Assembly: GCA_963733035.1 (NCBI GenBank)
Contig: CAVTBU010000006.1
Location: forward strand, 320,001-384,000
Direction: 5' to 3'
DNA length: 64,000 bases
From: Pirellulales bacterium
Lineage (GTDB): Bacteria; Planctomycetota; Planctomycetia; Pirellulales; PALSA-1355
The notes beneath the pieces were generated by a model that was not told the DNA's origin, did not search any database, and saw only the letters and a list, made by a program, of their open reading frames with translations. The position numbers were made by a program, and so were the translations under genes. Shown here piece by piece: positions 1-7,005 of the stretch (the first letter of the stretch is position 1; each line of letters starts with the position of its first letter).

Positions 1-240
1 CTGGTACTCGCCACGTGCCACGTTGGTATCTGGCTGGGGCATATGCGTTTCGAACGCCAACTTTACCACGCGTACAACAGCTTCCCAGTTTATCATTAGC
101 CAGCCACAGCGTCATTCACCATCGCGCAGGGTTGCAGCCGCTTGGCGATTGCCAACTACCCCGATAAGCTGAACCGCGCCTGGGGCGAGCGCTCAGAGGC
201 CGACAAGCTTCTTCTTCGGATGGACGAAAGGACGGTTCCT

Positions 241-2690: not shown

Positions 2691-3020
2691 ATGTTCCGTT
2701 ACTTCGTCGATAAGAGGGATTGCACGCATCACCGGATTTTCCCGGGAGTGGATATCTATACGACTGTCTGCCAGCACGTAATGCTATCGCTGGTGGAAAT
2801 GCAGCCTGGGGCCGTGGTCGAGGAGCACAGCCATCCCCATGAACAGATGGGCCTGATGCTCGAAGGCGTAGCCGATTTTACGATTGGCGACCAAAAACAG
2901 CGCGTCGCCGTCGGACAGATGTGGCGCATTCCCGGCGGTGTCGTGCACTAGGTTGTGGCGCTCGATCGGCCGGTCCGCGCGTTGGACGTTTTTAGCCCAC
3001 CGCGTGAAGACTATCAGTGA
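2691..3020 (+). CDS. Cupin-domain protein interrupted by an in-frame TAG at 2949-2951
   Basis: Cupin motifs HSHPHEQ and GQMWRIPGGVVH. After the TAG the same frame reads VVALDRPVRALDVFSPPREDYQ*, a typical cupin C-terminus. GGAG precedes ATG 2691. Confidence 0.8.
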
Positions 3021-3886
3021 AGGTAGAGTTCGGAAAGCAGAAGATGAGGAATCCAGACGTCATTCTGCTGCTGGGCCAGATCGCGCGTTTCTTTCGCGTT
3101 CCTCAGGCCGCACTGCTCTTGCTGCTGGCGTCCTCGTGTGCATCGATGCCGGAGTTGCCTTGGGCGCCAGTGGCGAAGGATGCTTCGGCGGGCTTCTACG
3201 ATACGGCACGGTTGGAATACCGGCTCGACGCCGGCAAGCTTGGCCAGCCGCTCGACGTATTGCGAGTCGATGGTCGGCAGGTCAACTACGAGCAGATTGC
3301 CAGCAGTCCACTTCCTGATCGCTCGGTGGGAACGCTCGTCATTCAGCAGCCGCATCCGGCCGGACGCGAGGGATTTGCTCGCGTGACGTTCTCGATCGAC
3401 AGTGCGGAGCCGTCAACCGAAACGAGCGTTTGGAACCGATTTGTGTTGACGGATTCGTCATCCGTCAAGATTGGTGGTCAAGAGGAAGTGCATGAGATTT
3501 GGGCCATGGACCTGCCCCAAGCCGAGGCAGGCCAGTACTTCAAACTGCTGTCGATGCGGAGTTTCTACTCGGCCCCCGAGCCTGACATTGCGACAGCGCA
3601 TTTGGCCGTGACACTGGATGGCAAAGAGGTGGCAAAGAATTGGGAGTCGTTGCCTGAATTGAATGCCCTGGCTCAGCGTGTTCGTCGCGAAGGGCGCCTG
3701 GTGGCCTATCTGCGTCCCCAGGCACTGGCGGGCGAAACATCGAATGCGATCGCGAGCGTGCAGGCCTACCGTGAAATGCTGGCCAGAACGAGTTCGCCGA
3801 CCGGATCGCCGCCGCCTGCGGCATCAGGTATCCTGGCCCCCGAACCAAGCGTGGCCAGCAACCACTTGCCCTATGCCGCCCGCTAG
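3017..3886 (+). CDS. Hypothetical protein, probable lipoprotein (start uncertain)
   Basis: 289-aa ORF with LLLLLASSC lipobox-like segment. GTG start overlaps the cupin TGA (GTGA). Confidence 0.6.
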   Translation: MKVEFGKQKMRNPDVILLLGQIARFFRVPQAALLLLLASSCASMPELPWAPVAKDASAGFYDTARLEYRLDAGKLGQPLDVLRVDGRQVNYEQIASSPLPDRSVGTLVIQQPHPAGREGFARVTFSIDSAEPSTETSVWNRFVLTDSSSVKIGGQEEVHEIWAMDLPQAEAGQYFKLLSMRSFYSAPEPDIATAHLAVTLDGKEVAKNWESLPELNALAQRVRREGRLVAYLRPQALAGETSNAIASVQAYREMLARTSSPTGSPPPAASGILAPEPSVASNHLPYAAR

Positions 3887-3928
3887 GGGCGTGGCTGGCT
3901 TTTTTCCTCCGCGCAGCGGCATGCTCCC

Positions 3929-3957
3929 TTGCAAACCGCCGCGCATCTGATCACAAT
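3929..3957 (+). promoter_or_regulatory. Sigma70-type promoter of the aroF leader
   Basis: TTGCAA (3929-3934), 17 nt, CACAAT (3952-3957). The predicted +1 falls at about 3964, the A of the leader ATG. Confidence 0.6.
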
Positions 3958-3963
3958 AGCGGC

Positions 3964-4038
3964 ATGAACGACTTCCTCCGCGTGTATTTTTGGTACTTTT
4001 TTATCCCGCTGAGTCGCGGGGCCGGAGGAGGAACGTAA
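3964..4038 (+). CDS. Attenuator leader peptide MNDFLRVYFWYFFIPLSRGAGGGT (24 aa)
   Basis: Six consecutive aromatic codons TAT TTT TGG TAC TTT TTT (3985-4002), directly upstream of an intrinsic terminator and the DAHP synthase gene. Confidence 0.85.
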   Translation: MNDFLRVYFWYFFIPLSRGAGGGT

Positions 4039-4068
4039 AATTCCATCCTGAGGAAGCGACCAAAACAG

Positions 4069-4105
4069 AGCCCCGAGACTCAACCAAAGTCTCGGGGCTT
4101 TTTTT
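4069..4105 (+). terminator. Attenuator terminator upstream of aroF
   Basis: Perfect 12-bp stem AGCCCCGAGACT / AGTCTCGGGGCT, 7-nt loop, then a T-tract. Its 5' arm can alternatively pair with 4010-4022 (12 of 13). Confidence 0.9.
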
Positions 4106-4191
4106 GTTTCTACAGGCATCGTCATTCGGAGGAGCACCTACTCCTCAATGCATAACCATCAGGCCATCCAATTTTTGTACTGGAGACTCCC

Positions 4192-5205
4192 GTGATCGTT
4201 GTCATGAAGAAAGAGGCCTCGACCGCCGACGTCGAGCACATGGTCCAGCGGATTGAAACGCTGGGCCTGAAAGCCCATGTCATTGTCGGCACCGAGCGCA
4301 CCGTGATCGCCGCCGTGGGCGACGACCGCCAAGCGCATAAAGAATCTTTGGAGAGCGGCCCGGGAGTCGCCGAAGTCATGCCCATTCTTGCCCCCTACAA
4401 AGTTGCCAGCCTGGAAGTCAAACACGAACCGACAACAATCCGGGCAGGCAGTCTGACGCTCGGCAATGGTACCGTCGGCGTCATTGCCGGGCCCTGTTCG
4501 GTTGAGTCCGAAGAGCAGATTCTCGCCTGTGCGCACGCCGTCAAGAAAGCCGGTGCCACGGCCCTGCGCGGCGGCGCCTTCAAGCCGCGCACCAGTCCTT
4601 ACAGCTTTCAGGGCCTGAAGGAAGACGGCCTGAAAATGCTGGCCGCGGCGCGCGATGCGACCGGCCTGGCCGTCGTGACCGAAGTTGTTGCGACCGAGGA
4701 TGTGCCCCTGGTGGCCGAGTACGCCGACGTGCTGCAGATTGGCGCTCGCAATATGCAGAACTACCGGCTGCTCGAAGCCGTGGGCGCGACCGATTGCCCC
4801 GTGCTGCTCAAGCGCGGGCCGAGCGCCACGATCGACGAATTGCTGCTGGCTGCCGAGTACGTACTGAACGGCGGCAATCCGAACGTCATGCTCTGCGAGC
4901 GGGGCATTCGGACCTTTGAAACGCATACACGTTTCACGCTACCGCTGGCGACCGTGGTCTATCTGCATAAGAAGACGCATTTGCCGGTGGTCGTTGATCC
5001 GAGCCACGGAACGGGTCACACCTATCTGGTTCCGCAGATGGCGGCCGCCAGCGTCGCCGCCGGGGCGGACGGCCTGATTATGGAAGTGCATCCCGATCCC
5101 GAACGGGCGCTTTCCGACGGCTATCAGTCGATGAACTTCAAACAGTTTGAAGAGACCATGGAGATGTGCCGCAAAGTCGCCGCCGCGCTCGGTCGCAAGA
5201 TGTGA
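4192..5205 (+). CDS. aroF: 3-deoxy-7-phosphoheptulonate (DAHP) synthase, type I-beta, with N-terminal regulatory domain
   Basis: Motifs [52 protein letters not shown]-terminal [17 protein letters not shown] ferredoxin-like domain. GGAG before the GTG start. Confidence 0.95.
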
Positions 5206-5242
5206 TCAGATTGCCGCAGCCGATCGAACGTTTGACTTCGGG

Positions 5243-7005
5243 TCAATGAGCGGCGGGTGCCGTTTGTTCGGGGGCGATGGGGATTTCAATGAGTTCCTCG
5301 TGCACGCGTTCGCGCTCACGGTCGACTTGCTCGGCCGTGGCTCCGAGTTCGCGGAGCATGGCCGTTGCGAGTGCGAGCGCGACTTCGCCTTCGCCGGAGA
5401 AGACGAGGTCCGCGCCGGCCGATTTTACGGATCGCAACTGCGTGACGTAGCTGACGCGCGCCAGCACTCGAATCTTGGGATTGAATAGGCGCGCCAGGCG
5501 GATTACCTCCGCGCTGCCGTTGAGGTTCGAAGCGCTGAGGATCAGCGTGCCGGCCAAGTCCGCGTGCGCGCCCTTCAGCGTATCGGGCTGCGTCGCGTCG
5601 CCATAGACGGCGGCAACTCCCGCGCGGCGGGCCGACTGCACGGCTTCAAAGTTCAAGTCGATTACGGTTGGTTCGACTTCGTTCTCGCGGAGCAATCGCA
5701 CGAGCGTGCGCCCAATTGGGCCGTAACCAATGATCACGGCCCGATAAGGCGAGGGCTTCACATCCTCGGGTGGGTGGTCGTCAGTCTTGTGCGTCTTCCT
5801 GCGGCGTTTGAGCCAGTGTCGCAACCGGGCGTTGCGTAGTAGCCAACCGCCCAACGGATCGGACGAGCGATAGAGGATCGGGTTGATTGAAATCGAAACA
5901 ATTGCCGCGGCGACCAGGGCCTGTGTTCCCTCGACGGGCAACAGATCCAGTTCGCGCCCAGGGTTGCCAGAATGAACGAGAATTCGCCGATTTGCGCGAG
6001 CGCCATCGCGACTGCCAACGCGGTCTTGAGTGGATATCCAAGTGCCGCGACAATTGCCCAGGCCGCCACCGGCTTGCCGATCAGGATAATTGCCAGGGTT
6101 GCGGCGATCAGCCCCGGCATCGCCAGCAGGCTATGCGGGTTGAGCAGCATGCCCACCGAGACGAAGAACAGCACCGCGAATGCGTCGCGCATCGGCAGTG
6201 CATCCGACGCGGCCCGCAGGCTGAAGTCGCTACGGGCCACAATCATGCCGGCCAGGAATGCGCCCAGCGCCATCGATACGCCGAACACCACGGCCGAACC
6301 GACCGCAATTCCAAGCGCCACCACTAGCACCGTAAGCGTGAACAACTCGCGTGAACGTGTCAGCGCGGCGCGATGCAGAATCCACGGCACAACGCGGCCG
6401 CCGATCACAAAGACGGCGGCCACCAGCACGACGACCTTGCTTACCGCGAGGAGAAGTGTTAGCCAGAGCGGGCCTGCATCCGCGCCACCACCGAAGATGG
6501 CCGGCAGTAGCACGAGCACCAGCACCGTTAGGAGATCCTCCACGACCAACCAACCGACGGCAATGTGGCCGGTCGGCGTGTGCAGATCGCGATGGTCGCT
6601 CAACACGCGCAGCAACACCACCGTGCTGGCCACCGAAATCGCTAGCCCAAAGATCAACCCGGCCGACCAGTCCCAACCGAAGGCCCGAGTTGCCAACATG
6701 CCCAACGCGGTGGCGACCAGGCATTGCACCACGGCGCCCGGTACTGCCACTTTCCGCACGGCCAATAGTTCGTTGAGGTGAAACTCGAGGCCCACGCCAA
6801 ACATCAGCAGAATCACGCCAACTTCGGCAAGTTGCTCGGCGATCGATTGATCGGCAATGAAGCCGGGCGTGTCGGGTCCCACGACGATGCCAGCCAAGAG
6901 ATAGCCAACAATGGGCGATAGACCCAGTCGGTGCGTGATGTAGCCCAGTACAAGCGCAATCGCCAGGCCCGTAGTCAATGTCAGAATCAAATCCAAGCCG
7001 TGCAT
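5243..7005 (-). CDS. CPA2/Kef-type cation:proton antiporter (YbaL/RosB-like) with TrkA-N domain; 1-nt frameshift near 5957-5959
   Basis: Multi-TM region with LAEVGVILLMFGVGL, ISVASTVV and AQIGEFSFILA. C-terminal IIGYGPIG...YGDAT. Adding one G restores LGRELDLLPVEG. Confidence 0.85.

Follow-up and report, generated by a model that had tools for sequence, protein, structure and literature searches.

The 64,000-nt stretch of DNA analysed here (the window), from contig CAVTBU010000006.1 of a Pirellulales bacterium, carries a gene for a type I-beta 3-deoxy-D-arabinoheptulosonate 7-phosphate (DAHP) synthase, and our subject is the candidate transcription attenuator at 3964-4105 that precedes it; all features of the window described below lie on the plus strand. 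The gene (4192-5205) encodes 337 amino acids with an N-terminal ferredoxin-like regulatory domain (PF00793, 8.2e-79; PF18152, 1.4e-23), in line with the first-pass annotation, which had placed DAHP synthase downstream of the element. DAHP synthase catalyses the entry step common to phenylalanine, tyrosine and tryptophan synthesis. The leader open reading frame (ORF; 3964-4038), situated 154 nt upstream of this gene, comprises 24 codons plus TAA and encodes the peptide MNDFLRVYFWYFFIPLSRGAGGGT; it was identified by sequence reading and from the ORF list, and orthologous ORFs occur in relatives. Its codons 8-13 (3985-4002) read TAT TTT TGG TAC TTT TTT, that is, Tyr Phe Trp Tyr Phe Phe. Both the 24-codon ORF and its six consecutive Tyr/Phe/Trp codons had been claimed at first pass, and both are there.

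Downstream of the leader ORF lies an intrinsic terminator (4069-4105), recognised by direct reading, by folding and by a terminator scan (entry 4067-4101, 14 pairs, 8 of them G-C). Its stem (4069-4080 with 4088-4099) is a perfect, G+C-rich 12-bp helix with a 7-nt loop (4081-4087), followed by T7 in a T-run that extends to 4105. The 5′ arm of the terminator doubles as the 3′ strand of an antiterminator, whose 5′ strand, TGAGTCGCGGGGC (segment 2, 4010-4022), is complementary to 4070-4082 at 12 of 13 positions, with a single G.A mismatch at 4016/4076. The predicted energy of this duplex is -19.3 kcal/mol compared with a mean of -9.7 kcal/mol for 200 shuffles, none of which reached -19.3. A 151-nt region spanning the element has a predicted folding energy of -60.4 kcal/mol (z = -4.43), which none of 200 shuffles matched. 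On the 5′ side, direct reading identifies CTTCCTCCG (3972-3980) as the candidate 5′ strand of a protector, or anti-antiterminator, that pairs with CGGAGGAGG at 4023-4031; the core of this pairing is CCTCCG (3975-3980) with CGGAGG (4023-4028), which can be extended to nine pairs including one G.U. The 3′ strand is also a Shine-Dalgarno-like purine run and occupies near-invariant alignment columns.

Aromatic runs of this kind are rare in the genome (assembly of 6.65 Mb, 60.3% G+C). In a six-frame translation of 13.3 million residues, the control-codon run is one of four runs of at least six Phe, Trp or Tyr residues. The other three fall in two long open frames (979 and 337 amino acids) and one 112-amino-acid frame, and only the run at 3985-4002 lies in a small ORF. 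A run 3 kb before the window (WYFWYWF, G000:C6:316920) was rejected, as its 112-amino-acid frame looks antisense to a gene. Small ORFs with at least five aromatic residues in seven number 41 in the genome; a terminator follows four of them, and an aromatic-pathway gene lies downstream of the leader ORF only. The combination of aromatic run and structure at 3964-4105 is more than chance.

We next turned to relatives. Orthologues of the DAHP synthase were present in 41 of 41 genomes searched, which included 24 others of the family and 16 from other families of the order. From these 40 relatives 30 upstream loci were fetched, and 29 were evaluable as one (L011) starts at a contig end. With a leader called as a small ORF with at least five aromatic residues in seven, followed by a strong hairpin and a T-run, 23 of the 29 carried leader ORF and terminator upstream of the orthologous DAHP synthase gene. 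Two more, L023 (LFWFSF, 4/7) and L027 (FYF), kept the RNA motif with a weaker aromatic run. The window's closest named relatives, with 89% and 82% identity, are records titled Planctomycetia and Pirellulales. Among named loci (L032-L090), almost all of them titled Planctomycetota, ORF and terminator were found in 32 of 58 evaluable cases, and ten further loci had four aromatic residues in seven; the positives bear the names Thermoguttaceae, Pirellula, Rhodopirellula, Roseimaritima, Gemmataceae, Isosphaeraceae, Planctomycetaceae, Planctomycetales and Phycisphaerae. In other phyla (L091-L110) an aromatic leader was seen at 2 of 20 loci, one from Calditrichota (L100) and one from an unclassified bacterium (L104). 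These two leaders (HFFGFYFGYYYW and FFFNFYWFYF, respectively), each with a terminator, also lie upstream of DAHP synthase orthologues, and their antiterminator complementarity was not significant in the duplex test.

For covariation analysis we aligned 27 distinct leaders that share the peptide tail ...P-x-x-R-G-A-G-G-G (alignment A1). Both arms of the terminator hardly vary in this alignment, and the same is true of a GCGAC box and of a stretch of about 30 nt (CCCGCCGGGTCGCGGGGCCGGAGGAGG). The terminator pairs in 93.2% of alignment cells and shows 21 double-sided changes compared with 7.0 in shuffles, a value that none of 500 shuffles reached. The antiterminator (columns 71-83 with 156-168) pairs in 88.3% of cells, with double-sided changes in 18 cells compared with 7.6 in shuffles and a covariation score of 0.206 compared with 0.135, and for both measures none of 500 shuffles scored as high. 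One antiterminator pair (73-166) is GC in 16, AU in 8 and GU in 3 sequences and unpaired in none. When the helix was slid to other registers, at most 49% of cells paired. The position of the G4016/A4076 mismatch (77-162) is mismatched in 26 of 27 sequences, indicating that the antiterminator is always slightly weaker than the terminator. Thus the perfect terminator with its T-run and the 12-of-13 antiterminator, as first proposed for the window, recur in relatives, where both stems covary. Complementarity also extends beyond the alignment, as lineages with quite different terminator arms (GCCTCAAGGGC, GGCCCTGAAGTC, GGCCCTGGACC or GCCCGC) carry a matching complement between control run and terminator. 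With an automated definition of the arms, the antiterminator duplex reached z ≤ -2 at 41 of 57 loci (median -3.11).

Two further conserved pairings involve segment 2. RNAalifold predicts a small hairpin between CCCGC (4005-4009) and GCGGG (4016-4020), which in this model would sequester segment 2 at its core, directly 3′ of the control codons; it pairs in 91.9% of cells with invariant pairs and no covariation. The conserved GCGAC at 4056-4060, recognised in the alignment, can pair with GTCGC (4013-4017) and does so in 85.2% of cells, with covariation that is not significant; it is possibly a second sequestering partner of segment 2.

The same alignment distinguishes how different parts of the leader ORF are constrained. 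Identities at codon positions 1, 2 and 3 were 0.44, 0.38 and 0.59 for codons 2-7, 0.86, 0.74 and 0.70 for the aromatic codons, and 0.91, 0.87 and 0.83 for codons 14-23. Codons of the control run stay aromatic, but the particular residues differ between leaders. In the tail, the conservation of third positions in four-fold degenerate Pro, Arg, Gly and Ala codons points to constraint by RNA pairing and not by the peptide. Many relatives (for example L005, L008, L013, L014 and L016-L018; A1 columns 66-74) encode Ser-Pro-Pro-Gly, as opposed to Ile-Pro-Leu-Ser in the window. Pro-Pro-Gly is a pause motif that depends on elongation factor P, and a pause there would put the ribosome on the antiterminator strand.

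To determine how widely the element occurs in the order, we built a covariance model (R1) on alignment A1 and searched 151 genomes drawn evenly from the order, counting matches at E ≤ 0.001. R1 scored the window element at 132.8 bits and found one other match in the same genome, a weak one (31.1 bits). Matches were obtained in 118 of 151 genomes (93 of the 119 of high quality) and in 78 of 95 genera, usually with one match per genome. Where both R1 match and DAHP synthase orthologue could be located, the best match lay directly upstream of the orthologue in 20 of 21 genomes; the exception, G029, has only a weak match elsewhere. A scan of 3700-4400 against Rfam (E up to 10) gave no family at its gathering score, and the best leader-type scores were 23.3 for His_leader (RF00514; gathering score 49) and 16.9 for Phe_leader (RF01859; 55). 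The element works like Phe_leader and His_leader in the proposed mechanism and is a member of neither Rfam family.

We also counted residues in the best nine-residue window of each of 53 distinct planctomycete leaders. Phe was present in 53, Tyr in 50 and Trp in 47 leaders, with means per leader window of 3.3, 1.7 and 1.2 residues, respectively, and 44 of the 53 contained all three. Of 210 Phe codons in the leaders, 156 were TTT, compared with a TTT share of 38% in the long ORFs of the window's genome. This excess reflects either sensitisation through a rare codon or pairing of the U-run. Five leaders (L075, L079 and L082-L084) are Trp-rich and not Phe-rich, with runs such as RRWWRAWYF, GWWRSWAF, GWRWSWCF and GWWWSWAF; three are titled Isosphaeraceae, one Planctomycetota and one Planctomycetales. 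This suggests a lineage-specific shift in the amino acid that is chiefly read.

A promoter-like element, TTGCAA (3929-3934), a 17-nt spacer and CACAAT (3952-3957), was recognised by sequence reading and by alignment with relatives and stops 6 nt before the leader ATG. Relatives repeat this layout (cTTGCAA, 17 nt, CA[C/G]AAT, 6-7 nt, ATG). When a promoter was defined as TTGnnn-16..18-nAnnnT with at least 7 of 12 matches and an end 5-8 nt before the start codon, it was found in 35 of 52 distinct leaders, compared with 26 of 5200 (0.5%) shuffled upstream 45-mers. A generic promoter scan of 3000-5600 listed none, and the CACAAT -10 hexamer falls below the match threshold of that scan. The conserved position of the promoter just before the ATG suggests that the leader mRNA is probably leaderless or near-leaderless. 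Such a start would fix the start codon of the leader and explain why the leader ORF lacks a Shine-Dalgarno sequence. Upstream of the promoter-like element, an ORF without a Pfam match (3017-3886) ends in a weak terminator-like hairpin with T6 (3882-3899) that overlaps its stop codon, as would fit a leader that is transcribed as a unit of its own.

Overall, a leader ORF with cognate codons, an intrinsic terminator, a mutually exclusive antiterminator, conservation, covariation and promoter position suggest a model in which 3964-4105 controls DAHP synthase by ribosome-mediated (leader-peptide) transcription attenuation and switches the gene on when aromatic aminoacyl-tRNAs are scarce. We put the probability of this reading, which is drawn from comparative sequence analysis, at roughly 80%. 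In this model, transcription would start at or beside the A of the leader ATG (3964), and a ribosome would load as the 5′ end emerges. With ample charged tRNAs for Tyr, Phe and Trp, the ribosome would pass codons 8-13 and reach the stop codon at 4036. In its wake, or once it has left the RNA, the ORF's 5′ half would pair again with the GCGGGGCCGGAGGAGG region, in the form of hairpin 4005-4020 and of helix 3972-3980:4023-4031. With 4010-4022 held in this way, the terminator (4069-4099) would form and RNA polymerase would stop at the T-run. When an aromatic aminoacyl-tRNA is scarce, the ribosome would instead stall on 3985-4002 and cover the 5′ strand of the protector structures; 4010-4022, thus freed, would pair with 4070-4082 once this is made, no terminator would form and transcription would enter the DAHP synthase gene. 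We infer translation of the ORF, stalling, a kinetic role for the protector and a response to all three amino acids, the last from the 44 of 53 leaders that carry Phe, Tyr and Trp together.

Folding with a masked ribosome footprint bears on this model in both directions. We cut the transcript at 4084, before the 3′ arm of the terminator, masked a 30-nt footprint and calculated the mean probability of pairing between the terminator 5′ arm and 4010-4022. With the A site on the first to fourth control codons (Tyr1 to Tyr4) the antiterminator probability was 0.81-0.84, and on Phe5 it was 0.70; at the first codon past the run it fell to 0.23 and at the second to 0.00. Antitermination is therefore compatible with a stall within the run and is blocked once translation moves just past it. 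On their own the equilibrium folds give no switch.

Several results weigh against the attenuator model or parts of it. In the full transcript the terminator was the minimum-energy structure in every masking state, an outcome that is, on the other hand, expected for a kinetic switch. In the cut transcript the antiterminator probability was only 0.41 for a stall on the last Phe codon (Phe6), 0.43-0.61 with the ribosome at the stop codon and as high as 0.81 with no ribosome. As the antiterminator is favoured without a ribosome and is lost in part only with one at the stop codon, termination under plenty requires the assumption of a kinetic trap or of steric hindrance: after full translation, or when there is no translation, either formation of the protector would have to come first or the pairing would have to be sterically blocked by a ribosome that stays on the stop codon. 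In the Escherichia coli trp leader, the 1:2 and 2:3 helices are likewise similar in stability. The protector helices show no column-wise covariation in the 27 leaders, and the partner of the GGAGGAGG strand varies in position within the 5′ half of the ORF between species. At the level of distribution, 4 of 29 relatives (L020, L021, L028 and L029) lack an aromatic leader, which implies that the control is dispensable; L021, L028 and L029 have no leader at all. Complementarity for an antiterminator was not significant, by the automated arm definition, at 16 of 57 loci, among them Pirellula/Rhodopirellula-type loci (L042, L047, L051 and L052). Finally, 9 of 53 leaders lack Phe, Tyr or Trp in their best nine-residue window, and the single tested counterpart does not respond to all its codons. 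In Corynebacterium glutamicum the aroR leader (Phe-Tyr-Phe) precedes aroF, and limitation of Phe raises aroF transcription via stalling, as set out in the relevant parts of PMC11802643 and of Mentz et al. 2013 (PMC4046766); the supply of Tyr, by contrast, made no difference there (Neshat et al. 2014, as summarised in PMC11802643). Because the Tyr codon of aroR had no measurable effect, sensing of three amino acids may not hold here either.

The candidate protector of the first pass is supported indirectly at most. The pairing exists, and helices of the 3972-3980:4023-4031 type are the minimum free energy structure in the same-genus leaders L002 and L006; the window's own minimum free energy fold uses a different register. 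Native duplexes of the protector strands average -17.0 kcal/mol compared with -14.6 kcal/mol for cross-species combinations, and none of 5000 permutations was as low; the missing covariation and the shifting 5′ partner stand on the other side. The GGAGGAGG segment (4024-4031) is a strong Shine-Dalgarno-like run that is nearly invariant in relatives and stops 5 nt before the leader stop codon. One might speculate that it could hold a terminating ribosome at the stop codon through anti-Shine-Dalgarno pairing.

L020 (G036:C493) has an intact RNA motif and terminator about 190-277 nt upstream of DAHP synthase and scores 86 bits with R1. Only about 20 nt separate its TTGCAG box from its CCCGC box, such that the ATG and the aromatic codons are missing. 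Judged by its sequence, this natural deletion variant should have lost amino-acid sensing.

The alternative that survives best, although we consider it unlikely, is that the ORF is translated and regulatory but acts through ribosome arrest by the nascent peptide or the conserved tail, or through a Rho-dependent or translational read-out, and not through stalling at hungry codons. It would account for the conserved tail (...PxxRGAGGG) and its spacing to the stop codon, for the SPPGRG or Pro-Pro-Gly encoded in many relatives and for the Shine-Dalgarno-like GGAGGAGG ending 5 nt before the stop, and it gains from the equilibrium folds, which leave termination under plenty unexplained. However, third positions in the tail are about as conserved as the others (0.83 compared with 0.91 and 0.87), which argues for constraint on RNA and not on peptide, and the window itself encodes PLS, not PPG. 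Moreover, what the run conserves is the aromatic codon class, cognate to the pathway, and a strong intrinsic terminator comes with a covarying antiterminator.

An RNA switch that binds a ligand or a protein (riboswitch-like or regulator-bound), with the overlapping ORF incidental, seems very unlikely. The near-invariance of about 30 nt (CCCGCCGGGTCGCGGGGCCGGAGGAGG) in the 27 leaders exceeds what base pairing requires and would fit a binding site, but no Rfam family reached threshold. The ORF, its promoter-adjacent start, the aromatic run and the stop position are kept despite entirely different RNA in Gemmataceae, Isosphaeraceae and Phycisphaerae. As a ligand-binding RNA would not need these ORF features, their conservation counts against this explanation.

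Slightly harder still to sustain is the proposal that the locus makes a functional aromatic-rich small peptide, or an independent small RNA ending at 4105, unrelated to DAHP synthase control. In its favour, the locus forms a short transcript unit that comes with a promoter and a terminator. Nevertheless, it would not be expected to sit directly upstream of the DAHP synthase orthologue in 20 of 21 genomes; N-terminal residues are not conserved and the order of aromatic residues varies, contrary to a functional peptide, and an antiterminator that covaries with the terminator is needless for an ordinary small-RNA terminator. Chance, with the hairpin as the terminator of the upstream gene (3017-3886; 183 nt past its stop codon on the same strand) and the small ORF as a random open frame, is scarcely credible given that this is the sole small-ORF run of at least six aromatic codons in the genome, that relatives within the order and outside it keep the element although their contigs differ in upstream sequence, that a promoter-like element lies between upstream gene and ORF, and that the upstream gene already ends in a terminator-like hairpin (3882-3899).

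Ribosome-mediated attenuation remains the reading we prefer, and a bolder form of it can be entertained, tentatively and with somewhat less than even confidence. In this form a single leaderless leader would act as a three-input sensor, which opens the entry to the pathway whenever any of the three tRNAs (Phe, Tyr or Trp) runs short, and would be an ancient, Planctomycetota-wide device. The missing annotation of the ORF would explain why it went undescribed. If this is true, lineage shifts in codon mix, as in the Trp-rich Isosphaeraceae, would retune which amino acid limits the pathway. Given the Calditrichota and unclassified loci, the aro leader may be far wider than Planctomycetota.

E. coli pheL-pheA and trpL-trpEDCBA are leader-peptide attenuators that each sense one amino acid and control branch-specific operons. 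The logic at the window locus is the same, with control codons in or next to segment 1, alternative 1:2, 2:3 and 3:4 pairings and an intrinsic terminator, but the window leader mixes Tyr, Phe and Trp codons and does so at the common first step. The DAHP synthase genes of E. coli are controlled by repressors instead, according to the part of PMC11802643 that deals with them. C. glutamicum aroR-aroF shares with the window a short aromatic-codon leader ORF before a DAHP synthase gene, a likeness that is functional only. In contrast to that system, the element described here comes from another phylum, has six consecutive codons including Trp, belongs to an RNA family conserved across a whole order and apparently has a leaderless start. 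For the last property the parallel is with mycobacteria, in which leaderless polycysteine short ORFs act as attenuators, as stated in the relevant portion of bioRxiv 10.1101/834739. There, too, as far as that portion describes it, the regulatory ORF starts at the 5′ end of the transcript and its codons are cognate to the downstream pathway, but the codons are for Cys and the organisms are Actinobacteria, whereas the window has aromatic codons.

As the first-pass annotation had supposed, we found no report of such an element in Planctomycetota in the literature; subscription comparative surveys of attenuation (cited in PMC1262725) could mention one. In the part of Korolev et al. 2016 (PMC4833913) that concerns Planctomycetes, leader genes appear only as a distance statistic, and DAHP synthase does not come up in Seliverstov et al. 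2005 (PMC1262725). The Rhodopirellula-1 motif (Weinberg et al. 2010, PMC2864571 and supplementary alignments) was considered and rejected, as its sequences are unrelated and it is not this element. The mechanism is classical and has a DAHP synthase precedent in Corynebacterium; what is new, as far as we searched, is its occurrence in Planctomycetota. Its value thus lies in distribution and annotation and not in a new principle, as the mechanism is a textbook one. Little is known of gene regulation in Planctomycetota, and the element offers a testable, phylum-wide example in which a single leader combines control codons for three amino acids ahead of the gene for their shared entry step. If the mRNA is leaderless, ribosome loading would be coupled to the appearance of the 5′ end, and the R1 family is defined well enough for use in annotation pipelines.

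At the regulated gene itself, a Shine-Dalgarno-like GGAG (4182-4185) was read 6 nt before the GTG start of DAHP synthase, and a similar motif stands at the matching position in most relatives' upstream regions, as judged by eye and uncounted. A small ORF of 15 amino acids (4148-4195), the stop of which overlaps the GTG, was taken as chance, as it has no counterpart in 28 other orthologous upstream regions. The ferredoxin-like domain may mediate feedback inhibition, as in the Thermotoga enzyme, and attenuation would then add a second layer of control on this DAHP synthase. A second DAHP synthase paralogue, about 50% identical, lies on contig 5 (508691-509697) and matches in two frames (residues 1-284 and 284-336), which reflects a frameshift, from either a broken gene or an assembly error. 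No aromatic or Trp leader was found upstream of the genome's two chorismate-binding (TrpE-like) genes. The earlier suggestion that the attenuator replaces TyrR/TrpR-style control agrees with the lack of a Trp_repressor (PF01371) match in this 92%-complete genome but otherwise goes beyond the evidence.

A scan of the genome for further leaders that favour particular amino acids and precede a terminator gave too much noise, above all for Trp, and yielded one usable case, of the Ile/Val type. This second attenuator-like unit (contig 5, 517830-517978; L112 1483-1631) surfaced as the weak second match of R1 (31.1 bits) and has an Ile/Val-rich leader ORF, MLVFGRLNRNVAAAIAVGVIIISEVRP, followed by a strong terminator (AAGCCCCGAGGCC...GGCCTCGGGGCTTTTTT). 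The gene that starts 56 nt downstream, at L112 1687, carries HMGL-like, HCS_D2 and LeuA_dimer domains and resembles citramalate or isopropylmalate synthase. Leader-peptide attenuation is thus not a one-off in this organism, to judge from this attenuator-like unit.

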